A DNA stretch of 64,000 nt from an uncultured Chloroflexia bacterium (GTDB lineage Bacteria > Chloroflexota > Limnocylindria > Limnocylindrales > CSP1-4): assembly GCA_963759135.1 (NCBI GenBank), contig CAVWXU010000002.1, positions 2,360-66,359 on the forward strand, given 5' to 3'. The notes under the pieces are model-generated. The model saw nothing but the letters and a program-made list of their open reading frames with translations, was not told the origin of the DNA and ran no database searches. This document shows positions 2,618 to 60,435 of this stretch, in pieces. Both the position numbers and the translations under genes were made by a program. The first letter of the stretch is position 1. The number at the start of each line of letters is the position of its first letter.

Positions 2618-3715
2618 CTATCGATCTCCGAGCAGGTCGCGGACCTCGTGCGCGATCTGCAGGTCCTCTCGAGCCGCGATGACGAGCGTCGCGACGCGCG
2701 CTCCCTGCGCCGAGATGTCGCGATCTCCGGTGCCGCTCCGGTTGGAGTCTTCGTCGAGTGTCACGCCCAGGAACCCGAGCCCTGTCGCGGCGTGCCCGCG
2801 GATCTCGAACGAGTTCTCCCCGACCCCTCCCGTGAAGACGAGCACGTCGAGGCCGTCCATCGCCGCTGCCATCCGCGCGATCTCGCCGCGGAGCCGGTGC
2901 AGGTACACGCCCAGGGCCGTCGCCGCCACCTCGTCCCCGCGCCCGGCACGCTGCAGGATGGCCCGCATGTCGGCCGTGCCGGTGAGCCCGACCAGGCCCG
3001 AGCGGTGCTCGAGCGCTGCCGCCAGCTCCGCCGGCGGCAGGCCGACGTGCTCCTCCAGCCAGAGCACGAGCCCCGGGTCGACCGACCCGGACCGCGTGGC
3101 CATGACCAGGCCCTCCAGCGGCGTGAAGCCCATGGTCGTGTCCACGGAGTACCCGCCCGCGACCGCAGCGAGGGATGCCCCGGCCCCCAGGTGGCAGGTC
3201 ACGATGCGCAGGTCCTCGACCGGTCTGCCGACCAGCCGGGCGGCCTGTCGCGAGGCGTAGGCGTGCGAGAGTCCGTGGAAGCCGTAGCGCCGCAGGTCCC
3301 AGCGCTCGCGCCACTCCGCAGGGAGCGCATAGGTGGCCGCTTCGGGCGGGATCCGGGCGTGGAACGCGGTGTCGAAGCACGCGACGGCGGGAACGTCCGG
3401 GATGGCTCGGCTGACGACGTCCAGCGCCGCCAGCGACTTCGGCTGGTGGAGCGGCGCCAGGTCCGTGAGCGCCTCGAGCCGCGCGCGCACGGCGGCGTCG
3501 ATACGGATCGGCGCCGAGTAGATCCGGCCGCCATGGACGATGCGATGCCCGACGGCGTCGATCGATCCGAAGGACTCGAGGGCGGGCGCCACTGCCGCCT
3601 CGTCCGCGTGGCCCCGGGGCGCCGGCAGATCGGCCGTCCCGGCGATGCGATCGTCGGCATCCAGGACGCGCAGCTTCAGGCTGCTGGAGCCGGCGTTGAC
3701 CACGAGCACGCGCAT
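2618..3715 (-). CDS. ackA: acetate kinase
   Basis: The N-terminus MRVLVVNAGSSSLKLRVLD and the full-length acetate/propionate kinase pattern are present. A GGAGGG RBS precedes the start, which lies 13 bp after the phosphoketolase stop. Confidence 0.95.
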   Translation of the reverse strand: MRVLVVNAGSSSLKLRVLDADDRIAGTADLPAPRGHADEAAVAPALESFGSIDAVGHRIVHGGRIYSAPIRIDAAVRARLEALTDLAPLHQPKSLAALDVVSRAIPDVPAVACFDTAFHARIPPEAATYALPAEWRERWDLRRYGFHGLSHAYASRQAARLVGRPVEDLRIVTCHLGAGASLAAVAGGYSVDTTMGFTPLEGLVMATRSGSVDPGLVLWLEEHVGLPPAELAAALEHRSGLVGLTGTADMRAILQRAGRGDEVAATALGVYLHRLRGEIARMAAAMDGLDVLVFTGGVGENSFEIRGHAATGLGFLGVTLDEDSNRSGTGDRDISAQGARVATLVIAAREDLQIAHEVRDLLGDR

Positions 3716-28396: not shown

Positions 28397-28583
28397 GGCG
28401 GCAGTGTAGCCCGCCCCACGGCGCGTTCGGCCGTCCGCCGTGGCGCGTCCGGCCGCCGTTCCCGTACCATGTGCGGTGGCCTCGTTGGCGGCGACGCCGC
28501 GCGATCCGCGTGATGTGTCGGGCCGCAGGCCATTTCTCGGGGCATGACGTGGCGATCCCGCCACCGCACAAGGGTGTCCGTAC

Positions 28584-29759
28584 ATGAAGGTTGGTGTGGC
28601 CAGAGAGACAGCGCCGGGCGAGCGCCGCGTGGCGCTGGTGCCCGAGACGCTGGGCAGGATCCAGAAGGTGGGCGCCGAGGTGCTCGTGGAGCACGACGCA
28701 GGTCTCGGTTCGCACTTCCTCGACAGCGCATACGAGGCCGCCGGCGCGTCGATCGTCTCCACCGACGAGCTGTACGCCCAGGCGGATCTCGTCGCGCGCG
28801 TGCACAAGCCGTCGCCGTCCGAAGCCGCGAAGCTGCGGCACGGTCAGGCCGTGGTCGGGTTCATGCAGCCCCTGCTGGACCCGAGGCTCGCAGCCGACCT
28901 CGCCGCGAAGGGCGTGATCGAGATCAGCCTGGACGCGATTCCCCGCACCCTCAGCCGGGCCCAGACGATGGACGCGCTCTCCTCGCAGGCCAACGTCGGC
29001 GGCTACAAGGCGGTGATCATGGCCGCCGAGGCCTACGGCCGCTACCTGCCCATGCTCACCACTGCGGCCGGGACGGCGAAGCCGGCGAACGTGCTGGTCC
29101 TCGGCATCGGCGTGGCCGGCCTCCAGGCCATCGCCACGGCGCGCCGGCTCGGAGCCGTCGTCAGGGCGTACGACGTGCGCCGCGAGACGAAGGAGCAGGC
29201 CCAGAGCGTGGGCGCGACCTTCATCGAGCTGAAGTCCTTGGCCGACGCGACAGGTGAAGGCGGCTACGCCCGCGCCCTCACGCCCGAGGAACAGAAGGCG
29301 CAGCAGGACGAGCTCAACGGGCACATCGCCGCGCAGGACATCGTGATCACGACGGCGCAGGTCCCCGGCCGGCGACCGCCGGTCCTGGTCACCGCGGCGG
29401 CGGTGGCCGGCATGAAGCCGGGCTCCATCATCGTGGACATGGCGGCCAGCGATCTCGGCGGCAACTGCGAGCTCTCCAGGGCGGGCGAGACGGTCGAGAC
29501 GGACAACGGCGTCACGATCCTCGCGCCCACGAACCTGCCGGCGTCGATGCCGGGGAGTGCGAGCCTGTTCTACTCGCGCAACCTGGCCGCGCTGCTCGTC
29601 ACCTTCATCAAGGACGGACAATTCACCATCGATCCGACGGACGAGGTGCACGCGGCGACCGTCATCACCAACGACGGCCGGGTGGTCCAGGAGGCGACGA
29701 AGAAGCTGCTCGAGCCCGCCGCCGGCTCCGGCACGGGCACCGGAGGTTCCGCCGCGTGA
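28584..29759 (+). CDS. pntAA: NAD(P) transhydrogenase subunit alpha part 1
   Basis: MKVGVARETAPGERRVALVPE and the Rossmann motif VLVLGIGVAGLQAIA are present. It heads a three-gene pnt cluster with overlapping boundaries. Confidence 0.9.
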   Translation: MKVGVARETAPGERRVALVPETLGRIQKVGAEVLVEHDAGLGSHFLDSAYEAAGASIVSTDELYAQADLVARVHKPSPSEAAKLRHGQAVVGFMQPLLDPRLAADLAAKGVIEISLDAIPRTLSRAQTMDALSSQANVGGYKAVIMAAEAYGRYLPMLTTAAGTAKPANVLVLGIGVAGLQAIATARRLGAVVRAYDVRRETKEQAQSVGATFIELKSLADATGEGGYARALTPEEQKAQQDELNGHIAAQDIVITTAQVPGRRPPVLVTAAAVAGMKPGSIIVDMAASDLGGNCELSRAGETVETDNGVTILAPTNLPASMPGSASLFYSRNLAALLVTFIKDGQFTIDPTDEVHAATVITNDGRVVQEATKKLLEPAAGSGTGTGGSAA

Positions 29760-30076
29760 GTGTCGACCAGCTGCTCTCGTCCCTCACCATCTTCGTGCTG
29801 GCCATCCTGGTCGGCTTCGAGGTCATCAGCAAGGTCCCCGCGACGCTGCACACGCCGCTGATGTCCGGAGCGAACTCCATCCACGGGATCGTGCTCGTCG
29901 GCGCGATGCTGATCGCCGCCATCGCGGACAACCCGCTCAGCATCGTCCTGAGCGTCATCGCCGTCGCCTTCGCCACCATGAACGTCGTCGGGGGCTACCT
30001 CGTGACGGACCGCATGCTCGAGATGTTCAAGAAGCGCCCGGCTCCGCCGAAGGGCGGCACGAAGGCCGAGGCCTGA
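29756..30076 (+). CDS. pntAB: NAD(P) transhydrogenase subunit alpha part 2 (membrane)
   Basis: 106 aa with 3 TM helices. Its start overlaps the pntAA stop (GTGA). Confidence 0.9.
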   Translation: MSVDQLLSSLTIFVLAILVGFEVISKVPATLHTPLMSGANSIHGIVLVGAMLIAAIADNPLSIVLSVIAVAFATMNVVGGYLVTDRMLEMFKKRPAPPKGGTKAEA

Positions 30077-30080
30077 CGCG

Positions 30081-31505
30081 ATGTCGCTCGACACCTTCAT
30101 CCGGCTCGTCTACGTCGTCGCGGCGGCGTGCTTCGTGCTGGGTCTGCACCTGATGAACTCGCCGGCCACGGCGCGCCGGGGCAACCAGCTCTCCGCCGTC
30201 GGGATGGCGGGCGCCGTCCTCGGAACCCTGCTGCTGATCGCGGCGGGCGACGTGAGCACCACCGGCACGCTGATCTGGCCGATCATCGTGGTCGGCATCG
30301 TCATCGGCGGCGGGGCGGGCGCCTACAGCGCGCGCACCGTGAAGATGACCGCGATGCCGCAGCTCGTGAGCATCTTCAACGCGATGGGCGGCGGGGCCGC
30401 CGCGCTCGTCGCGATCGACGAGTTCGTGCGCGCGGCGGGCGTGGGCCCCCACACGCTCGGCACGACCGAGGTCGTCGCCACGGTGCTCGACGTCGTGATC
30501 GGCTCGGTCACGTTCACCGGCTCGCTGCTCGCCGCGGGCAAGCTCCAGGGGATCGTGACCGGCACGCCGGTCAAGCTGCCGTTCGGCCAGGCGGTCAACG
30601 TCGTCCTCGCGGTGGTCGCGCTGGCGACCGCGCTCTACCTGGTGGTGGTGGGCCAGGTCCTGGCGGTGCTGGCCCTGCTCCTGCTGGCGGCGCTGGTCTT
30701 CGGCGTGACCATGGTGCTGCCCATCGGCGGCGCGGACATGCCGGTCGTGATCTCGCTCCTCAACGCCTTCACGGGAACCGCGGTCGCCATGGCCGGGTTC
30801 GTGATCGACAACCCGGTACTGATCATCGCCGGCGCGCTCGTCGGAGCGTCCGGCGGCATCCTCACCAAGCTCATGGCCGACGCGATGAACCGCTCGATCC
30901 TCAACATCGTGGTGGGCGGCTTCGGCACCGGAGATTCGACGGCGGCGACGACCGCGATGGCCGCTGGCGGTGGCTCGGTCCGCGAGCTGACCATCGACGA
31001 TGCGGCGATCCAGCTGGCGTATGCCCAGCACGTGATCGTCGTGCCGGGCTACGGCCTCGCCGTGGCGCAGGCGCAGCACGTGACCGCGGAGCTCGCGGGC
31101 CTGCTCGAGGAGCGTGGCGTGGACGTGAAGTACGCCATCCACCCCGTCGCGGGCCGCATGCCGGGGCACATGAACGTGCTGCTCGCCGAGGCGAACGTCC
31201 CGTACCCGCAGCTCGTGGAGATGGACGACATCAACCCGGAGTTCCAGCGGGCGGACGTGGCGCTCGTGCTCGGGGCCAACGACGTGACGAACCCGGCGGC
31301 GCGCTCGGATCCCTCCAGCCCGATCCACGGGATGCCCATCCTCGACGTCGACAAGGCGGCCAGCATCATCGTGGTCAAGCGGTCCATGCGGCCGGGCTAC
31401 GCCGGCATCGACAACCTGCTCTACTCGGACCCCAAGACCGGGATGCTGTTCGGCGACGCCAAGGACGTCCTGACGCACCTCATCACTGCGGTCAAGGCGC
31501 TGTAG
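30081..31505 (+). CDS. pntB: NAD(P) transhydrogenase subunit beta
   Basis: 474 aa with an N-terminal multi-TM region and a C-terminal NADP(H)-binding domain (VPGYGLAVAQAQH...MNVLLAEA...LVLGANDV). Confidence 0.9.
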   Translation: MSLDTFIRLVYVVAAACFVLGLHLMNSPATARRGNQLSAVGMAGAVLGTLLLIAAGDVSTTGTLIWPIIVVGIVIGGGAGAYSARTVKMTAMPQLVSIFNAMGGGAAALVAIDEFVRAAGVGPHTLGTTEVVATVLDVVIGSVTFTGSLLAAGKLQGIVTGTPVKLPFGQAVNVVLAVVALATALYLVVVGQVLAVLALLLLAALVFGVTMVLPIGGADMPVVISLLNAFTGTAVAMAGFVIDNPVLIIAGALVGASGGILTKLMADAMNRSILNIVVGGFGTGDSTAATTAMAAGGGSVRELTIDDAAIQLAYAQHVIVVPGYGLAVAQAQHVTAELAGLLEERGVDVKYAIHPVAGRMPGHMNVLLAEANVPYPQLVEMDDINPEFQRADVALVLGANDVTNPAARSDPSSPIHGMPILDVDKAASIIVVKRSMRPGYAGIDNLLYSDPKTGMLFGDAKDVLTHLITAVKAL

Positions 31506-48097: not shown

Positions 48098-49948
48098 GTG
48101 GCGATCGATCCCAACCAGGAGTTCCTCGTCCAGCCAGTCGACGCCTCCTGGCTGCAGTGCAACATCGAATGCCAGGAGGCGTGCCCGGTCGGCACCAACT
48201 GCCGCGGGTATCTCAACCTCGCCGCGGAGGGCCGCTTCGAGGAGGGCTACATCCTGGCCCGCGATCCCAACCCCGTCGCGGCCATGTGCGCCTACGTGTG
48301 CTCGGCGCCGTGCGAGCGCGCGTGCCGGCGCGGCGACATCGATCGCCCGCTGGCGATCCGCGCCATGAAGCGGTTCCTGACCGAGTGGCACGCCGCCTCC
48401 GGCATTCCCGACGAGATACCGGTCGTCACGCCTCGCGACGAGACCGTCGCCGTGGTCGGCGCGGGCCCCGCCGGCCTGTCGGTCGCCCGCGAGCTGGCGA
48501 CGGCCGGCTACCAGGTCGAGGTCTTCGACGAGCTGCCGTACGCGGGCGGGACCATGCTCATCGGGGTCCCCGCCTTCCGCCTCCCGCGCGAAGCGATCGA
48601 GATGGACGTGCGCCTGATCGAGCGACTGGGTGTCCGCTTCCGCTACAACACCCGCATCGGCCGCGACGTGTCGTTCGAAGCGTTGCTGGAGCGCTTCGAT
48701 GCCGTCGCGATCACCGCCGGCGCGATGGAGCCGGTTCCCCTCGACCTGCCCGGACGCGATCTCGAGGGCGTCCAGTACGGGGTCGAGTACATGCGCAAGG
48801 CCAACCTCGGCGAGCCGCTCGAAGTGGGACGCGACGTCGTGGTGATCGGCGGCGGATACACGGCCATGGACTGCTCGCGGACCAGCCTGCGGTACGGGGC
48901 GGAGCGCGTGACCATCGCCTACCGCCGCACCCGTTCCGAGCTGGTGGTCGACGAGGAGGAGCTGGGCGAGACGGAGCGCGAGGGCGTCCGCATGGAGTTC
49001 CTCGTCAGCCCCGTCGAGCTGATCGGGGAGAGCGGGCGGCTGACCGGCGTCAGGATGATTCGCAACCGGCTCGGGGAGCCCGACGCGACCGGCCGGCGCT
49101 CGCCCGTGCCGATACCGGGCACCGAGTTCGTCATTCCCGCGGAAACCGTCATCCCGGCCGTCAGCCAGGCCGCCGACACCACGTTCCTGCCGGTCGAGTC
49201 GAGGTTCGAGGTCGCCCGGGGGCGCATCAAGGTCGATCCGGGCACCTACGCCACCAACGTCAAGGGCGTCTTCGCCTGCGGCGATTTCGTGACCGGCCCG
49301 ACCACGCTCATCGAGGCCGCGGGTCACGGCAAGAAGTGCGCGTACGCCATCGACCGGTACCTGTCCGGGCGCTCGCAGGTCGAGATCCGGGCCGGCGTGC
49401 GGGTGATCAGCTCCTGGCGCCACGAGATGCCCGAGTTCTGGGACACGATCCCGCGGCAGCACGTGCCGATGGTGTCGCCGGCGGCGCGCATGCCATCGAC
49501 CGACCCGTCCGTCAACTTCGCGCAGCCCGTCGAGCGCGGCTACGGCGCGACCGAGGCCGTCGCCGAGTCCACCCGCTGCCTGATGTGCAACTACAACATC
49601 TGGTTCGACCCGTTCCGTTGCGTCCTCTGCGGCGCGTGCGCGGACGTGTGCCCCGAGGGCGTCATCCACATGATCGACGTCAGCCAGATGAAGTCCGAGG
49701 AGGCGCTTCCCGAGCTGGTGGAGGCATACGGCTGGCAGACCGGCGCGGCGATGGTCCTCGACGAAGAGCGGTGCATCCGGTGCGCCCTGTGCGTCACGCG
49801 ATGCCCCTACGACGCGATCACGATGGAGCGGTTCGAACTCCAGGAAGTCAGCAGCGACGGGTGGCTCTACAAGGAGAGCTATCGCGATGCCCAGCTCGGA
49901 CTGTTCGGCCTTGACAACCAGCCGGTGACCGGAGGTGGCGGCAGGTGA
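48098..49948 (+). CDS. GltD-like NAD(P)H-dependent flavoprotein oxidoreductase with C-terminal 2x[4Fe-4S] ferredoxin domain
   Basis: GTG 48098 follows a GGAGAG RBS. The N-terminal Fe-S region is CNIECQEACPVG...CAYVCSAPCERAC. The dinucleotide folds are VAVVGAGPAGL and VVVIGGGYTAMD. The C-terminus is CLMCNYN...CVLCGACADVCP...CIRCALCVTRCP. No TM helix is present. Confidence 0.85.
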   Translation: MAIDPNQEFLVQPVDASWLQCNIECQEACPVGTNCRGYLNLAAEGRFEEGYILARDPNPVAAMCAYVCSAPCERACRRGDIDRPLAIRAMKRFLTEWHAASGIPDEIPVVTPRDETVAVVGAGPAGLSVARELATAGYQVEVFDELPYAGGTMLIGVPAFRLPREAIEMDVRLIERLGVRFRYNTRIGRDVSFEALLERFDAVAITAGAMEPVPLDLPGRDLEGVQYGVEYMRKANLGEPLEVGRDVVVIGGGYTAMDCSRTSLRYGAERVTIAYRRTRSELVVDEEELGETEREGVRMEFLVSPVELIGESGRLTGVRMIRNRLGEPDATGRRSPVPIPGTEFVIPAETVIPAVSQAADTTFLPVESRFEVARGRIKVDPGTYATNVKGVFACGDFVTGPTTLIEAAGHGKKCAYAIDRYLSGRSQVEIRAGVRVISSWRHEMPEFWDTIPRQHVPMVSPAARMPSTDPSVNFAQPVERGYGATEAVAESTRCLMCNYNIWFDPFRCVLCGACADVCPEGVIHMIDVSQMKSEEALPELVEAYGWQTGAAMVLDEERCIRCALCVTRCPYDAITMERFELQEVSSDGWLYKESYRDAQLGLFGLDNQPVTGGGGR

Positions 49949-50673
49949 GCTTCCTCGAGCGGGTCGACCAGTCGATCCGCCGCAGCGCGGTCTGGCGCTC
50001 GGTATTCCGGCAGGCCTACCCCACCGACGAGCGCTCGCGGGCGATGGCGGTCATGAACAACGTGTTCCTGCACCTCCACCCGGTGCGGGTGCGCCAGCAC
50101 GCGGTGAAGTTCGCCTACACCTTCTGCCTCGGCGGGCTGTCGTTCTTCCTGTTCCTGGTCCTGGTCGTGACCGGCGTCTACCTCATGTTCTTCTACGTTC
50201 CCTCCGCCACGCAGGCCTACACCGACATCCTGCAGATCCAGTCGCAGGTGGTGTTCGGACTCCTGACCCGCAACATCCACCGCTGGGCGGCCCACCTGAT
50301 GGTGTTCTTCGTCTTCCTGCACATGATGCGGGTCTTCTACCACGGGGCGTACAAGCCGCCGCGCGAGTTCAACTGGGTCGTCGGCGTCGTGCTGCTGTTC
50401 CTGACGCTGATGCTGTCGTTCACCGGCTACCTGCTGCCGTGGGACCAGATCGCGTACTGGGCCATTACGATCGGCACCAACATGGCCAACTACGCGCCGC
50501 TGTTCAACAAGCCGTCCCAGCTCATCCTGCTCGGTGGGATCGAGGTGGGGCAGAACACGCTGCTCCGCTTCTACGTGCTCCACATCATGGCGTTCCCGCT
50601 GATCGCCGCCGTCTTCATGGCCGTCCACTTCTGGCGGATCCGGAAGGACGGCGGGATCTCCGGCCCGCTGTGA
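49945..50673 (+). CDS. petB: cytochrome b6-type (N-terminal cytochrome b, 4 TM)
   Basis: The GTG overlaps the upstream TGA. The heme His pairs are HRWAAHLMVFFVFLH and HIMAFPLIAAVFMAVH. The heme-ci Cys context is FCLGG, and the C-terminus is WRIRKDGGISGPL. Confidence 0.9.
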   Translation: MSFLERVDQSIRRSAVWRSVFRQAYPTDERSRAMAVMNNVFLHLHPVRVRQHAVKFAYTFCLGGLSFFLFLVLVVTGVYLMFFYVPSATQAYTDILQIQSQVVFGLLTRNIHRWAAHLMVFFVFLHMMRVFYHGAYKPPREFNWVVGVVLLFLTLMLSFTGYLLPWDQIAYWAITIGTNMANYAPLFNKPSQLILLGGIEVGQNTLLRFYVLHIMAFPLIAAVFMAVHFWRIRKDGGISGPL

Positions 50674-50694
50674 CGGGCGATCGCGGAGACTGAG

Positions 50695-51300
50695 ATGACC
50701 GAGACTCGACTCCCCCAGCGGAGCACGACGCCCGCGGCGCCCCCGGAGCGGCGCACGACCGAGATCGACAAGCAGCGCGTGCCGATGGCGGCCAAGCCGT
50801 ACCGGTTGCTTGCGCTCGTCAAGCAGGACGCCGTCGTGCGGGTGCAGAAGGAGCCGGACGACACCGTCCTGACCTGGCCCCACCTGCTGGCCATCGAGTT
50901 CTTCGCGGCCGCCATGATCAGCATCTTCCTGCTCTTCATGGGCGTCTTCGTCAACGCGCCGCTCGAGGACCTGGCCAACGGCAACGTGACGCCGGAGGTG
51001 GCCAAGGCGCCCTGGTACTTCGTCGGGCTGCAGGAGCTGCTGACCGCGTTCCACCCCACCGTGGCGGGCGTCCTGGTGCCGACGTTCGTGCTGGTTGGGG
51101 CTGCGCTCATCCCCTTCATCGACCGCGGTCCCGACGGCACCGGGGGCTCGCACCGGCCGTCCGACCGGAAGGTCGGCGTCATGCTCTTCTCCTACATCGC
51201 GATCTTCGGGCTCTTCCTCACCTTCGTCGGCGCCTTCTTCCGCGGTCCCGGCTACGCCTTCGTGCTGCCGTGGGTCAGCGGGCTGCACTTCGCGCTGTGA
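50695..51300 (+). CDS. petD: cytochrome b C-terminal part / subunit IV
   Basis: It has 3 TM helices. The Qo-site region TPEVAKAPWYFVGLQELL corresponds to TPLEILPEWYFFP of b6f subunit IV. Confidence 0.8.
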   Translation: MTETRLPQRSTTPAAPPERRTTEIDKQRVPMAAKPYRLLALVKQDAVVRVQKEPDDTVLTWPHLLAIEFFAAAMISIFLLFMGVFVNAPLEDLANGNVTPEVAKAPWYFVGLQELLTAFHPTVAGVLVPTFVLVGAALIPFIDRGPDGTGGSHRPSDRKVGVMLFSYIAIFGLFLTFVGAFFRGPGYAFVLPWVSGLHFAL

Positions 51301-51362
51301 ACGCAGCGAACGAGGAAGGGCGATGATGTCGGCCGCGCGTCTCCCGGGAGGACCGTCGCCTC

Positions 51363-52031
51363 ATGGGTAACTGGAAGCTCGCCGTCTCCGAACAGCCGCG
51401 TGCGCTGACGCCAGAGGTGCTGAAGTCGATGCGGTCCGGCCGCTCCGCCGGGCTGTCCCGCCGCCAGCTGCTGCGACGATCGCTCGGGGCGGCCGTGGGC
51501 CTCTGGCTGGCCGAGGTGCTCGGCGGGACGCTCGGCTTCCTGTGGCCCAACCTCGCGGGCGGCTTCGGAGGCACGGTCGAGATCGGGGATATCAAGACCG
51601 TGGCCGCCTCGCCGGCCAACAGCGCCGCGAAGTTCAGCGACGGCGCGCCGGCCTACTTCCAGAGCGCCCAGACGTACATCATGATGCTCGACCCGAGCCG
51701 GGGCTTCGTGCCCGGAGACAACCCGCTCGGTGACGGTGCCAGCACGAACGTGCGAACGCTCTGGCAGCGCTGCACGCACCTCGGCTGCAAGCCGAACTTC
51801 TGCCCCAGCAACTTCTGGTTCGAGTGCCCCTGCCACGGCTCCCGCTACGACCGGCTCGGCATCAAGGTCGCCGAGCTGGGGCCGGCCCCGCGGAGTCTCG
51901 ACCGCTTCGCCTCCACCATCGACTCCAACGGCATCCTCACGATCGATACCGGGAAGATCACCCTGGGTCCGCTTCCAGTCTCGATCGGCCAGCCCGGACT
52001 GATCCCGGCCAAGGGTCCGGGCTGCCTGTGA
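51363..52031 (+). CDS. Rieske [2Fe-2S] subunit
   Basis: A Tat-like motif SRRQLLRRSLGAAVG is present. The cluster boxes are CTHLGC and CPCHGS. Confidence 0.9.
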   Translation: MGNWKLAVSEQPRALTPEVLKSMRSGRSAGLSRRQLLRRSLGAAVGLWLAEVLGGTLGFLWPNLAGGFGGTVEIGDIKTVAASPANSAAKFSDGAPAYFQSAQTYIMMLDPSRGFVPGDNPLGDGASTNVRTLWQRCTHLGCKPNFCPSNFWFECPCHGSRYDRLGIKVAELGPAPRSLDRFASTIDSNGILTIDTGKITLGPLPVSIGQPGLIPAKGPGCL

Positions 52032-53173
52032 GTGGAACCGGCGATCACCGCACCGGGCGCGAACTGGAGCCGCGACCCCCCACGGAGGCGGGCGTCGAGC
52101 GCTTCTCGGCCCCCGACACCGCCCACACCGTCGGGCTCAGCGAGGAGCGCGCCGCGCAGATCGTGCGGCAGACGGGCAACGCCCGTGCCATCGCCTTCCT
52201 CGCCGTCCTGGTCATTGCGTTGTTCATCCCCATCTACTGGTTCTACGACCTGGGCGTCCCGGCAGTGGCGAACACGAGCCGCCTGGCGAAGGAGGCCCAG
52301 GCCCAGCAGGTCACCGCGATCCAGGCCGGCGAGCAGCTGTTCCTGTCGAACTGCGCCCGGTGCCACGGCGACCAGGGCCAGGGCGGCATCGGGCCGCCCC
52401 TCAACGACCAGGGCAAGCTGTACAACGCCGTGACGCCGGCGGGCGCCCCGGGAGCCGGGCACCTGAACCCGAACTACATCCGGAACGTGCTCACGGTGGG
52501 CGGTCGCTACGTGTGCGGCGACCCGAACAGCCTCATGCCCATCTGGTCCGACGTCAACGGCGGCCCGCTCAACTACGTGCAGATCGACGACCTGATCGCC
52601 TTCATCACGGCCAGCAAGGACGTGAGCTGGGTCTACCAGCCCGTCGCGTCCCCGGGGCAGACGGCCGGCCCGTCCGCCATCCACCAGGGCTGGCGCGACC
52701 CCACGTACGTGCCGCCTCCCGGCGCCACGCCCGTGCCCGCCTGCTGGCGGAATCCCAGCGGTCAGATCGGCCCGGGCGCAGCGCCTGCATCCTCGAGCAC
52801 CGCGGCCGGGTCTCCGCCGCCCATCGCCAGCCCCGGCACGGCGCAGAGCCCGCGCGTGATCAAGCTCGACGAGACCGCGCAGCTGGAGATCACGGACCCC
52901 AGCGGCCAGCAGGCGTCCACGATCTACGTCAAGAAGGGCGAGACGGTGCGCTTCGAGATCACCAACACCGCCAACTTCACGCACAACTTCTACGTCGGGC
53001 TGGTCTCCGACCTTCAGGCCGCCAACACAGCCGCGCTCAAGGGTGTCCCTGACTTCTCGTCCGGAACCGAGACTCTTGACTACACCTTCGACCAGGACGG
53101 GCAGTTCGGCTTCGGATGCCTGGTGCCCGGGCACTACACGACCATGCACGGCACGATCCAGATCGAGCCGTAG
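52028..53173 (+). CDS. membrane-anchored cytochrome c fused to a C-terminal cupredoxin (type-1 copper) domain
   Basis: The GTG overlaps the Rieske TGA. The TM anchor is AIAFLAVLVIALFIPIYWFY, the heme motif is CARCH, and the likely distal Met lies in SLMPIW. A P/S/A linker precedes the cupredoxin domain FTHNFY...GCLVPGHYTTM. Confidence 0.8.
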   Translation: MSGTGDHRTGRELEPRPPTEAGVERFSAPDTAHTVGLSEERAAQIVRQTGNARAIAFLAVLVIALFIPIYWFYDLGVPAVANTSRLAKEAQAQQVTAIQAGEQLFLSNCARCHGDQGQGGIGPPLNDQGKLYNAVTPAGAPGAGHLNPNYIRNVLTVGGRYVCGDPNSLMPIWSDVNGGPLNYVQIDDLIAFITASKDVSWVYQPVASPGQTAGPSAIHQGWRDPTYVPPPGATPVPACWRNPSGQIGPGAAPASSSTAAGSPPPIASPGTAQSPRVIKLDETAQLEITDPSGQQASTIYVKKGETVRFEITNTANFTHNFYVGLVSDLQAANTAALKGVPDFSSGTETLDYTFDQDGQFGFGCLVPGHYTTMHGTIQIEP

Positions 53174-53185
53174 ATCGAGCCGTAG
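53162..53185. repeat. perfect 12-bp tandem duplication (ATCGAGCCGTAG x2) including the stop codon of the cytochrome c gene
   Basis: Read directly. The first copy encodes I-E-P-stop. Confidence 0.95.
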
Positions 53186-53214: not shown

Positions 53215-54726
53215 GTGGCGGAGCGGGCATTGCCGCCCGGCGGCGGCCGCAGGCGGGCCTTCTTCGGCGCGCTCGACGCCGACGGCTGGACGTGGGCCGG
53301 GATCAAGGCGCTGGGCTGGTTCGTCGTGCTGGTCCTGGTGCTTGGCTACCTGCCCGACCGCGCCTACTACTTCACGGTGTTCCCGACCATCGACCTCGGG
53401 GCGAACATCGTGAGCCCGATCAACCTCTGCCCACCCGACAACGCCGACCTGCCCTGCCCGGCTCCCGTCGGATCGCTCATCCCATGGCAGGGGAACCCGC
53501 CGCAGCTGTCGCTCCCCGAGGGACGCGTCGACGCGGTCGCGATCACGGCCGGGACGAGCATGTACGTCGCCGGCGGCAGCGGCCCCGGCGGGGCCAGCGC
53601 CTCGGTGTTCCAGACCACGGTCAGCGCCCAGGGCAACCTCTCGCCGTGGAAGACCGCGGCGGCCCTCCCGGCGCCGCGCGCGGGCGCGGCCGAGGCCACG
53701 ATCTCCGGCACGACGCTCCTCATCGGCGGGGCCGACCAGGGGGGCAAGGCGTCCGACGCGGTCTACGAGGCCGTCCTCGACGCCAACGGCGCGCTGACTG
53801 GCTGGAAGCCGCTCCCTGCTCTGACCCTTCCCAAGCCCCTGGCCGGCGCGGCGGCGGTCGTCGGGCCGACGAGCGTCTGGCTCCTGGGGGGCCGGGACGC
53901 CACCGGTGCGTACAGCCGCTCCGTCTACCGCTCCATCGCGGATGCGACCTCGGGCGCGCTGGGTCCCTGGAAGGAGCAGCCGGCGCTGGTCCTCCCCGCG
54001 GGGCGAGCGTTCGCAGTCGGCGCCGAGGTCGGCAACTTCCTCTACCTGGCGGGGGGCCAGGATGCGCACGGCGCGCAGGCGAGCGTCTTCCGCCTCTCGC
54101 TCGACTCGAAGGGCGAGCCTGCCGTCGACGCGGCGACGAACGGCGTGCTCGGCTGGAACGTCAGCCGTCAGTCGCAGTCCCTGCCGGCACCCCGGACCGA
54201 TGCCTCAGGGTTCGTGGCAAACGGCTCGCTCTACGTGGTGGGCGGCCGAGATGCGGCCGGAACGCCGACGGACTCGTTCTACTGGGCCACCCCGGACGCC
54301 GCCGGCGACCTGGCCGGTGGGTGGCAGCAGCTGGCGCAGGACAACCTGGCGGCGGCCGGGCAGGCAGGCCGGGTCTCCGAGCCGAGAGCCGGCGCGGCGG
54401 CGGTGGTGACGAGCGGCCAGGCGTTCCTGATCGGTGGCGCGGGTATCGGCGGACCGTCGGCAGCCACACTCCGCAGCGACATCTCGCCGAGGCCGCCGTT
54501 CTTCGCGCTGGGCCTGGTGGGCGCCACCATCCCGGCGCTCTCGATCAAGGGGGACATCGGCCAGCAGCTGGGGTACGTCGACGCCAGCGTCGTGGGCGGC
54601 ACGGACTTCGCGCTGCTCATCCTCATCGGCGTGGCGTTCTCCCACCGGCGCGCCACGCGGCGGTTCTTCTCGCGGCTCACCCGCGGCCGGGTGCACCCGC
54701 CACTCGAGGACGAGTACCCGGGCTGA
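53215..54726 (+). CDS. Kelch-repeat beta-propeller membrane protein
   Basis: GTG 53215 follows a GGAGGA RBS. It has an N-terminal TM, five to six repeats of the type LPAPRAGAAA..G..LYV.GG.D, and C-terminal TM helices. Confidence 0.7.
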   Translation: MAERALPPGGGRRRAFFGALDADGWTWAGIKALGWFVVLVLVLGYLPDRAYYFTVFPTIDLGANIVSPINLCPPDNADLPCPAPVGSLIPWQGNPPQLSLPEGRVDAVAITAGTSMYVAGGSGPGGASASVFQTTVSAQGNLSPWKTAAALPAPRAGAAEATISGTTLLIGGADQGGKASDAVYEAVLDANGALTGWKPLPALTLPKPLAGAAAVVGPTSVWLLGGRDATGAYSRSVYRSIADATSGALGPWKEQPALVLPAGRAFAVGAEVGNFLYLAGGQDAHGAQASVFRLSLDSKGEPAVDAATNGVLGWNVSRQSQSLPAPRTDASGFVANGSLYVVGGRDAAGTPTDSFYWATPDAAGDLAGGWQQLAQDNLAAAGQAGRVSEPRAGAAAVVTSGQAFLIGGAGIGGPSAATLRSDISPRPPFFALGLVGATIPALSIKGDIGQQLGYVDASVVGGTDFALLILIGVAFSHRRATRRFFSRLTRGRVHPPLEDEYPG

Positions 54727-58304: not shown

Positions 58305-58380
58305 GGGCCGGTAGCTCAGCGGTCAGAGCAGGGGGCTTTTAACCCTCGTGTCGTGGGTTCGAATCCCAGCCGGCTCACCA
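58305..58380 (+). tRNA. tRNA-Lys (anticodon UUU)
   Basis: The cloverleaf was folded by hand. The acceptor is GGGCCGG/CCGGCTC, the D-arm is TAGCTCAGCGGTCAGAGCA, the anticodon loop is CTTTTAA, and the T-arm is GTGGGTTCGAATCCCAG. CCA is encoded. Confidence 0.9.
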
Positions 58381-59302: not shown

Positions 59303-60435
59303 TCAGGCCCCGAGGATCGCGTCCATGCCGGCCGCGACCTGCTGCTGGCGCTGCTCCAGAACATGTCCGTAGGTGTTCGAGGTCAGCGTGATGGAGCTAT
59401 GGCCGAGCAGGTTCTTGACGTCCTCGAGCGTGAAGCCCTGCGCCAGCAGGAACGTCGCGGCGGTGTGGCGCAGGTCGTGGAAGCGGCTGTGCGGGCAGCC
59501 CCGCCCGCACGAGCGCGCGCTGGAAGGCGCGGGTGACGGTGGCGGCATCGAGGGCTGATCCGAGACTCGTGGTGAAGACGTAGCCCGCCTCCTGCCAGCG
59601 CGACCCGGCCACCAAACGTTCCATGCGCTGGCGGGTCCGATGCGCACGCAGGGTCGAGAGGGCGATCTCGGGCAGGACGAGCGTCCGGCGGCTGCGCTCG
59701 GTCTTGGGCTCCAAGAGCACCAGCTTGCCCTGCACCCGCGCGAGGGCATGCCGCACGTGCAGCCGGCGGGTCTCCAGATCGACGTCCTCCCAGCGCAGCC
59801 CTAGCAGCTCCCCCTGGCGCATCCCGGTGGCCAGCGCCGTGACGTACAGAGCTTCGAGCCGGTCGCCGGCCGCGGTTTCGAGCAGCTGGTGGGCCTGCTC
59901 GGGGGTGAGGGGTCGGATCTCGTGGTGGGGCACGCGTGGCGGATCGACCAGCCGGGCCACGTTGCGTGAGGCGAGGCCCCAGCGCTCGGCGGTCACCAGC
60001 GCTCGCCGCAGCACGGCACGGATGTGCATGACCCGCTTCGGGGAGAGCCCCGCAGCGAGCTTGGCGTCGAGGAACGTCTGCACCTCCATGGGGGTGAGCC
60101 TGGCCACCGCGATCCGGCCCAATCCGGGGATCAGATGGAGCGACACGATGTCGTCGTAGGTCGAGTAGGTGGAGTAGCGCAGCGTCGGCCTGGCGACCTC
60201 GTCGAGCCACTGGCGCAGGAAGGGCCCGAGCTTGCGGCGTTGGTCGGGGACCGCTCGGCGCTCGTCGCGCGCGCGGAGGAGCGGGAGCGAGCTTGGCGGC
60301 GACCTCGGCGCGGGTGTGGCCGATGACGAACTTGCGCACCCGTCGTCCGTTCTCGTAGCCCAGGTGGACCGCGCCCTCCCAGCGCCCGTCCTGGCGCTGG
60401 TAGATGGAGCCCTCGTTCGGCCCACGGCGGGTCAT
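59303..60435 (-). CDS. tyrosine recombinase (phage-type integrase), read through two apparent frameshifts
   Basis: The N-terminus MTRRGPNEGSIYQRQDGRWEGAV, the core ...ATGMRQGELLGLRWEDVDL... and the C-terminus RFHDLRHTAATFLL...LLGHSSITLTSNTYGHV lie in three frames. The junctions are near 60290 and at the GGG run 59493-59495. Confidence 0.8.

Follow-up and report, generated by a model that had tools for sequence, protein, structure and literature searches.

A flavoprotein gene linked to Rieske/cytochrome b genes in Limnocylindria and its relationship to the anammox complexes

Why is a gene cluster for a Rieske/cytochrome b complex headed by the gene of a soluble NfnB/GltD-like flavoprotein, and in which direction would electrons pass between the two? 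This question is raised by the locus at positions 48098-53173 of a 64,000-nucleotide stretch of DNA (hereafter the window) from an uncultured Chloroflexia bacterium from soil, of the order Limnocylindrales, class Limnocylindria (assembly GCA_963759135.1, contig CAVWXU010000002.1, positions 2,360 to 66,359). A preliminary description of the locus regarded the flavoprotein as a dedicated partner of the complex rather than a chance neighbour, and named the Rieske/cytochrome b complexes of anammox bacteria as an analogue. In this study, the operon and its relatives were investigated using domain and profile searches, alignments with solved structures and comparison of gene neighbourhoods. The linkage was found to recur well outside the genome in which it was noticed, and the proteins resemble those of the anammox complexes along the whole conserved core, thereby providing a basis for weighing what such a complex may do.

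Operon layout and conservation of the linkage

Five open reading frames lie on the plus strand within 48098-53173. Their coordinates and their domains (hidden Markov model search of Pfam) agree with the preliminary description of five co-directional genes, and the two stop/start overlaps that it gave are both read in the sequence:

48098-49948, plus strand: g1, NfnB/GltD-like iron–sulphur (FeS) flavoprotein of 616 amino acids (aa); Fer4_20 (3e-15), Pyr_redox_2 (7.6e-29) and Fer4/Fer4_7 (4e-12)
49945-50673, plus strand: g2, cytochrome b6 of 242 aa; Cytochrome_B (1.3e-45)
50695-51300, plus strand: g3, subunit IV of 201 aa; Cytochrom_B_C (2e-6)
51363-52031, plus strand: g4, Rieske [2Fe-2S] protein of 222 aa; Rieske (3.4e-6)
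52028-53173, plus strand: g5, monohaem cytochrome c-cupredoxin fusion of 381 aa; Cytochrom_C/Cytochrome_CBB3 (1e-6) and Copper-bind (9e-7)
49945-49948, plus strand: GTGA overlap, in which the GTG start of b6 shares letters with the TGA stop of the flavoprotein gene (context GGTGAGC)
52028-52031, plus strand: GTGA overlap, in which the GTG start of g5 shares letters with the TGA stop of the Rieske gene (context CTGTGAGT)

A Shine-Dalgarno-like string, GGAGGTG, stands 7-8 nucleotides (nt) upstream of the b6 GTG. In tblastn alignments with related genomes, b6 aligns from residue 1 and g5 from residue 6, and both GTG starts are supported because protein conservation in the relatives begins at these residues. 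Sequence and genome comparison show the flavoprotein gene to be translationally coupled to b6. The G+C content of the window is about 73%; a promoter scan found no promoter-like site, and a terminator scan found a single terminator-like match, which is not above chance expectation in DNA of this composition. At 53161-53184, a 12-nt tandem duplication, ATCGAGCCGTAG ATCGAGCCGTAG, spans the g5 stop and supplies a second in-frame copy of the last codons and the stop.

Relatives were collected by scanning one representative genome per GTDB species with a flavoprotein alignment, which yielded 593 relatives; loci are numbered with L, and the counts refer to the best 80 of these 593. They included 76 loci from Limnocylindria, which form two groups by their identity to g1 (~80% and ~51-53%), together with one from Acidobacteriota, one from Terriglobia and one from an anammox member of Planctomycetia. 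Seven of the 80 were uninformative, their DNA ending with the flavoprotein gene or at most 58 nt from it. The b6, subunit IV and Rieske genes directly adjoin the flavoprotein gene in 72 of the 73 informative loci, and 69 of these 72 belong to Limnocylindria. In 60 of the 69, the flavoprotein stop overlaps the b6 start by 4 nt (NTGA), and most loci without this overlap are long-read metagenome-assembled genomes (MAGs) with evident frameshifts. In seven loci (L023, L056, L068, L076, L081, L082 and L084, all but L076 being MAGs of the 'MFD' series), the flavoprotein alignment is truncated in a manner consistent with frameshift errors, which explains the apparent loss of the overlap. The sole informative Limnocylindria locus lacking the Rieske/b genes is L050, where the flavoprotein stop/b6 start (GTGAGTTTGG; b6 start GTGAGTTT; positions 2980-3010) is kept and is then followed by unrelated DNA, as would result from a rearrangement breakpoint or a chimeric assembly.

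The gene order of Limnocylindrales is syntenic beyond the operon (PIG-L, a 369-aa protein, the operon, a Kelch protein and DUF2203). In the Limnocylindria group at ~52% identity, the linkage is kept and the flanks are different. Four independent contigs from Acidobacteriota show the order flavoprotein-Rieske-b6-IV-multihaem c-c, in which the flavoprotein and Rieske genes overlap by an ATGA, and anammox-type contigs show Rieske-flavoprotein-b6-IV-multihaem c-HAO-like. A gene for a Copper-bind/CarboxypepD_reg protein was also observed upstream of the acidobacterial clusters (L002-L005, L083 and L088). The P0128 clade from metagenomes served as a negative control. Its proteins have the architecture of g1 at 39-40% identity and are encoded stand-alone: type II secretion genes lie on one side, a gene for phosphoglucose isomerase lies on the other, and Rieske/b genes are absent within 6 kb. 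Linkage to Rieske/b genes therefore characterises particular clades and does not follow from the protein architecture.

The flavoprotein-cytochrome b linkage is thus kept far beyond chance; the module spans the class Limnocylindria, occurs in Acidobacteriota and is not unique to this genome. Adjacency in related genomes had been named beforehand as a check on a dedicated partnership, and the 72 of 73 loci that keep it, along with the overlap conserved in 60 of 69, speak for that partnership and against a neighbour by chance. We consider it highly probable that the flavoprotein is a subunit or a dedicated partner of the Rieske/b complex.

Subunits of the complex and their homology to anammox proteins

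Rieske/cytochrome b complexes with an NAD(P) oxidoreductase were reportedly proposed for anammox bacteria by Kartal et al. in 2013. Two complexes of Kuenenia stuttgartiensis, Kuste4569-4574 and Kustd1480-1485, comprise b6-like cytochromes b, a five-helix subunit IV, multihaem cytochromes and a putative NAD(P) oxidoreductase (Kuste4570/Kustd1483), which is counted as a subunit and has NfnABC (9bp5) as its closest structural relative (Hauser et al. 2025, PMC12954380). The same study gives potentials of +303 mV (Kuste4569) and +335 mV for the Rieske proteins, proposes Arg511 of Kuste4570 as a haem contact, and presents an AlphaFold3 prediction of an additional haem b at the interface of the b6 dimer, with His43 (Kuste4571) or His62 (Kustd1481) as ligand (PMC12954380). 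An anammox-type contig for comparison (P0390) was found with a 63-aa Kuenenia Rieske fragment; its own Rieske fragment is 84% identical to 9rk4, its flavoprotein has an Arg at 511 in register with Arg511 of Kuste4570, and in its b6, numbered from Met17, WLHLHP has its first His at residue 43.

Compared with this cluster, the flavoprotein from the window shows 39% identity over 573 aa (full length). For b6, identity is 52% over 248 aa (277 bits), versus 44% and 180 bits for spinach b6; it is 44% for subunit IV and 45% for the Rieske protein. The top PDB matches of g4 are 9rk4 (E 2e-15) and 9rk3 (E 3e-13), both annotated as Rieske-like, whereas cyanobacterial PetC scores 6e-9; we take the two entries as the Kuenenia Rieske proteins on account of their Ser/Tyr and Ser/Phe positions. 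The window proteins are, as judged by these alignments, homologous to those of Kuste4569-4574 and Kustd1480-1485, and what had been named as an analogue proves to be a true sequence homologue.

The flavoprotein carries the dinucleotide-binding motifs GAGPAG and GGGYTA, eight Cys in the Fer4_20 region at its N terminus, an additional CxxC at residues 494-497, and CxxCxxCxxxC at 508-518 and 559-569, each followed by Pro, which constitute a C-terminal 2x[4Fe-4S] ferredoxin domain. A hydropathy scan found no hydrophobic or transmembrane (TM) segment in g1, consistent with a soluble protein. Homologues at 100% coverage are 616 aa long; the close ones (616-617 aa, 80-94% identity) belong to MAGs labelled Candidatus Limnocylindrales, Limnocylindria or Chloroflexota. 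The top PDB matches are NfnABC (9bov/9bp5, E 2e-109), then NfnA (9n5u) and NfnB (4ylf and 5jca), so NfnABC ranks ahead of NfnB and GltD; residues 20-508 align to chain A of NfnABC at that E value, and residues 18-425 to NfnB (4ylf, 5jca) and GltD. The protein has the features of an NfnB-type module, and of the module only, namely, a Fer4_20 cluster domain, FAD and NADPH Rossmann folds and the YRR(T) motif.

The YRRTR NADPH motif aligns with the same motif in Nfn enzymes. It is kept in Limnocylindrales and in anammox, and it reads FQRTR in several other Limnocylindria loci and CLESR in Acidobacteriota; because of these replacements, cofactor preference may vary between lineages. Residues C21 and C35 are present in 76 of 76 Limnocylindria loci and align with Cys of NfnABC 9bov, while Acidobacteriota have S/T and A, and anammox Q and V, at these positions. 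The two residues probably complete an N-terminal cluster that in Kuste4570 is one Cys, the fourth, short. An AlphaFold2 model of g1 (33-sequence alignment) reached a mean pLDDT of 55.8, with the FeS domains below 50, and is the basis of no structural conclusion.

The identification of g1 as a bona fide glutamate synthase small subunit was rejected, in agreement with the preliminary description. The NCBIfam models gave 210 bits against a cut-off of 448 (TIGR01317), 278 against 483 (TIGR01318) and 324 against 472 (TIGR01316). Architecture (the fused C-terminal ferredoxin domain) and context (no adjacent GltB gene) also exclude a GltD; neither the open reading frame list nor the Pfam search of the locus placed an NfnA-like or GOGAT large-subunit gene beside g1.

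Cytochrome b6 retains the four haem-ligand His and the haem-cn Cys (FCLGG), ends in GISGPL as in plastid b6, and matches b6 in the PDB at E 3.6e-53. Its N-terminal extension of ~26 residues (WRSVFR...FLHLHPVRV) includes His43, which aligns with the His43 position of Kuste4571 (FLHLHP versus WLHLHP in the anammox-type b6). The extension is common to Limnocylindria, Acidobacteriota and anammox, with the pattern W[RK]S[VI]FR...R.R[AS]...N[VL][FW]LH[LW][HL]P[VA][RK]VR; it belongs to the n side and is absent from plastid b6. In the acidobacterial versions, the haem-cn Cys of b6 is lost (YYLGS), and Phe replaces Tyr in the Rieske box. The NCBIfam ExtP equivalog model, which begins at g2 residue 36, is exceeded by g2 (299 bits, cut-off 290), and for this reason automatic (PGAP-style) annotation would name it ExtP, a selenite/tellurite reduction operon b-type cytochrome; this name is probably misleading.

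His43 was considered as a marker specific to flavoprotein-linked b6 and was ruled out, since the position is kept in L087, a Rieske/b cluster without flavoprotein gene in which both the WRSVFR stretch and the cn Cys are missing. As L087 keeps the His and the ExtP model starts at residue 36, His43 is probably a feature of a broader cytochrome b clade, and the first ~35 residues of b6 are the better candidate for a flavoprotein-docking element.

Subunit IV has 3 TM helices predicted by hydropathy in 201 aa, while the anammox-type protein has ~5 in 240 aa. Its Qo motif, AKAPWY, is kept in all loci compared, which on motif grounds assigns the b6/subunit IV pair to the APWY clade that Kao and Hunte described in 2014 (PMC4122944). 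Their clade has a split cytochrome b, a CxGG haem-ci motif and the APWY Qo motif, includes Chloroflexi and Planctomycetes among its phyla and, as they state, contains no characterised member.

The Rieske protein has a Tat-type signal anchor (SRRQLLRR) and the cluster boxes CTHLGC...CPCHGSRYD, with Ser and Tyr at the potential-raising positions; the second box compares with CPCHGSKYY in 9rk4. It has thus the predicted high-potential signature (Ser + Tyr) of Kuste4569. The g5 protein contains one CxxCH, an N-terminal TM helix at residues 54-72 and an azurin-like C-x4-H-x3-M copper site; the sole PDB match of its cupredoxin domain is auracyanin A (2aan, residues 277-378), and this match is weak (E 0.002). 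The fusion is conserved within Limnocylindrales with two copper-site spacings, C-x4-H-x3-M or C-x2-H-x2-4-M (L007-L086), and a dihaem c without cupredoxin takes its place in the Limnocylindria group at ~52% identity. The exit modules are interchangeable around the conserved core and consist of c-Cu, dihaem c, multihaem c, or multihaem c with HAO.

Neighbouring genes, electron flow and competing readings

Other features of the window are as follows:

53215-54726, plus strand: membrane-anchored Kelch beta-propeller protein (Pfam Kelch), 41 nt after g5, with a GGAGGAG string before its start
28548-29759 and 30006-31505, plus strand: PntA/PntB proton-translocating NAD(P) transhydrogenase; AlaDh_PNT N and C domains, PNTB (E 3e-178)
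58305-58380: tRNA-Lys(TTT), followed at 59397-60431, minus strand, by a phage-type integrase gene; the G+C content drops to 0.667 at 58-60 kb

The Kelch gene follows the c-Cu gene in 39 Limnocylindrales loci and is absent from other Limnocylindria and from the acidobacterial and anammox clusters; it may be an order-specific sixth gene of the operon. The tRNA-Lys/integrase region is probably an integrated mobile element. PntAB is another membrane route to NADPH and thereby bears on the physiological role of the flavoprotein.

We tentatively propose that the five genes encode one membrane complex performing quinol bifurcation to NADP+, a statement that, taken whole and with its direction, has in our judgement somewhat less than an even chance of being correct. 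The core would be a b6-type Rieske/cytochrome b quinol oxidase of the APWY clade, with the NADP(H)-binding FeS flavoprotein docked peripherally on the cytoplasmic (n) side of b6. (Mena)quinol would give up its electrons at the Qo site (APWY), the first passing through the high-potential Rieske cluster to haem c, blue copper and a terminal oxidase. The second would pass from haem bL to haem bH and haem cn, maybe by way of an extra inter-monomer haem b ligated by His43, would enter the flavoprotein at the C-terminal 2x[4Fe-4S] domain and would continue over the N-terminal clusters to FAD, where two such electrons would reduce NADP+. Four or more FeS clusters of the flavoprotein would thereby link FAD/NADP(H) with haem bH/cn, and the exergonic oxygen-linked branch would drive uphill NADPH formation from quinol, an aerobic case of the Kartal/Hauser bifurcation scheme. 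As a rule, Chloroflexota use menaquinone. The Ser/Tyr Rieske signature as in Kuste4569, the haem c/blue copper exit and this general use of menaquinone are the reasons for which net flow from quinol to NADP+ is favoured, albeit with reserve and short of an even chance. If menaquinone is used here, the same features would imply a very low-potential b chain, by the argument made for Kuenenia (PMC12954380).

A number of points weigh against the proposed bifurcation. Adjacency within the order is weak evidence, because the whole Limnocylindrales neighbourhood is syntenic, and the distant cases are decisive. Arg511 of Kuste4570 is Ala in the window flavoprotein, subunit IV has 3 helices where anammox has 5, and His43 is not specific to flavoprotein-linked b6, being kept in L087 and falling inside the stretch that the Geobacter ExtP model spans. 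Modules of the GltD/NfnB type are commonly NADPH-oxidising input modules. The host appears to be an aerobic heterotroph without obvious need for quinol-driven NADPH, and it encodes PntAB in the same window, 18 kb upstream. Electron transfer to the n side would oppose the membrane potential, making NADP+ reduction energetically borderline, and the use of menaquinone in Limnocylindria is assumed. The anammox function is itself a proposal, and its extra haem b is an AlphaFold3 prediction only (PMC12954380).

The same complex could instead run in reverse, with the flavoprotein oxidising NADPH and electrons entering at haem cn/Qi to reduce quinone. Such an enzyme would be an NADPH:quinone (overall NADPH:cytochrome c) oxidoreductase with a Q-cycle, a respiratory counterpart of the FNR-b6f cyclic flow that has been proposed for chloroplasts. 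The GltD, DPD and NfnB modules homologous to g1 are established as typically taking hydride from NADPH, the reaction would be downhill by ~250 mV and require no special energetics, the haem-cn Cys is kept beside the docking side, the hosts are aerobes with a high-potential exit module, and PntAB already supplies NADPH. However, reverse flow would leave unexplained both the high-potential Ser/Tyr Rieske signature held in common with anammox and the need for four low-potential-type clusters; the Acidobacteriota members without the haem-cn Cys still have the flavoprotein, and ordinary NAD(P)H dehydrogenases would be duplicated. We regard this direction as possible but on balance unlikely; both directions had already been suggested in the preliminary description and are hypotheses.

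Two further readings concern the flavoprotein itself. It could be an independent soluble enzyme (an NADPH:ferredoxin-type oxidoreductase or a GltD paralogue) that is merely co-transcribed with the Rieske/b operon, for which the P0128 clade offers a precedent of identical architecture and similar identity that stands alone without Rieske/b neighbours; the flavoprotein also has no membrane anchor, and the synteny of Limnocylindrales reaches well past the operon. This is rendered quite improbable by the recurrence of the linkage in three phyla with differing flanks and gene orders, the conserved 4-nt overlap, the GltD/GOGAT NCBIfam scores far under their cut-offs and the lack of an adjacent large-subunit or NfnA-like gene, and the homologous Kuenenia complexes are treated as containing a flavoprotein subunit (PMC12954380). 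Alternatively, an Nfn-like flavin-based bifurcation or confurcation may take place, in which FAD exchanges electrons with NADP(H), the b-haem chain and a third partner such as ferredoxin, linking the quinol, ferredoxin and NADPH pools. The nearest solved relatives of g1 are indeed the bifurcating NfnB and NfnABC subunits, and its FeS sites (eight N-terminal Cys, two of them Limnocylindria-specific; the CxxC; 2x[4Fe-4S]) exceed the needs of a simple wire. Yet the conserved cluster contains no gene for ferredoxin, an NfnA-like protein or another third partner, and the reading is purely inferential; we give it very little weight. Quinol bifurcation to NADP+ by a complex including the flavoprotein is thus retained as the working proposal.

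Occurrence outside anammox and comparison with known systems

The type of system is already known, having been proposed in 2013 and modelled in 2025 for anammox only; the window locus is a new form of it, and its Limnocylindria-wide and acidobacterial occurrence with different exit modules appears to be undescribed. No description of a Rieske/b-NAD(P) flavoprotein linkage outside anammox was found in the open literature for Chloroflexota or Acidobacteriota, and mention in subscription papers is possible. Because it is conserved with translational coupling across Limnocylindria and is also present in Acidobacteriota, the module is ancient, widespread and selected outside the anammox lifestyle, and given the same core in non-anammox lineages its function cannot be one bound to hydrazine or nitrite chemistry. 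To our knowledge, the NAD(P)H-generating bifurcation proposed for the anammox complexes, which are hard to study, has never been demonstrated. The simpler versions, which have three helices in subunit IV and a monohaem c-copper exit, may be tractable models for biochemistry and cryo-electron microscopy, and the APWY cytochrome b clade gains a concrete, testable partner. Automatic names (ExtP for g2, and generic NAD(P)-binding or FAD-dependent oxidoreductase for g1) hide the system. If bifurcation holds in aerobes, it would constitute a previously unrecognised reductant route at complex III from quinol-level donors such as H2, CO and succinate. The broader view, that a Rieske/b complex with a built-in NADP(H) flavoprotein is a mainstream respiratory enzyme of aerobic bacteria that abound in soil and freshwater (all Limnocylindria and many Acidobacteriota), bifurcating quinol while the O2 branch pays for NADPH or another low-potential reductant, is doubtful at present.

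Among known systems, cytochrome b6f with bound FNR offers a functional analogy only, in which a b6 with haem cn is combined with an n-side NADP(H)-binding flavoprotein. FNR has an unrelated fold and no FeS clusters, and is not encoded with b6f. Unlike the cyanobacterial and plastid b6f, the window complex has the c-cupredoxin protein instead of cytochrome f, no PetG/L/M/N, APWY for PEWY, and a b6 that is 44% identical to that of spinach. NfnAB/NfnABC and GltD share with g1 the cluster region at the N terminus, the two Rossmann folds and the NADPH motif YRRT; unlike them, g1 has no NfnA or GltB partner, carries a fused C-terminal 2x[4Fe-4S] domain and neighbours a membrane Rieske/b complex.

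The Geobacter extHIJKLMNOPQS cluster encodes multihaem cytochromes, a porin and a rhodanese (PMC5877670; NCBIfam NF040969, NF040970). It contains neither flavoprotein nor cupredoxin, and ExtP is ~35 residues shorter at the N terminus than the window b6. While g2 passes the ExtP cut-off as stated above, g3 matches ExtQ weakly (46 versus 150 bits), and no ExtH-N genes are present at the window locus. The APWY clade is represented in the window by AKAPWY (g3) and FCLGG (g2), which are kept in all Limnocylindria loci; the clade is defined by its Qo motif, and a flavoprotein is not mentioned in the part of the source available (PMC4122944).

The anammox complexes remain the closest counterparts, and several differences set the window locus apart from them. 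The window exit is a monohaem c-cupredoxin, whereas anammox has hexa-/octahaem cytochromes and an HAO-like protein; the gene order is flavoprotein-b6-IV-Rieske-c rather than Rieske-flavoprotein-b6-IV-c; the window flavoprotein has, probably through the extra C21 and C35, an all-Cys N-terminal cluster site; and the host is an aerobic-type member of Chloroflexota without an anammoxosome. In both, the Rieske/b cluster includes the gene of a GltD/NfnB-like FeS flavoprotein that has a di-cluster domain at its C terminus. Also common to both are a split b6 with separate subunit IV, a retained haem-cn Cys and the APWY Qo motif, the b6 N-terminal extension including the His43 position (the extra haem itself being predicted by AlphaFold3), and the Ser/Tyr high-potential Rieske signature.

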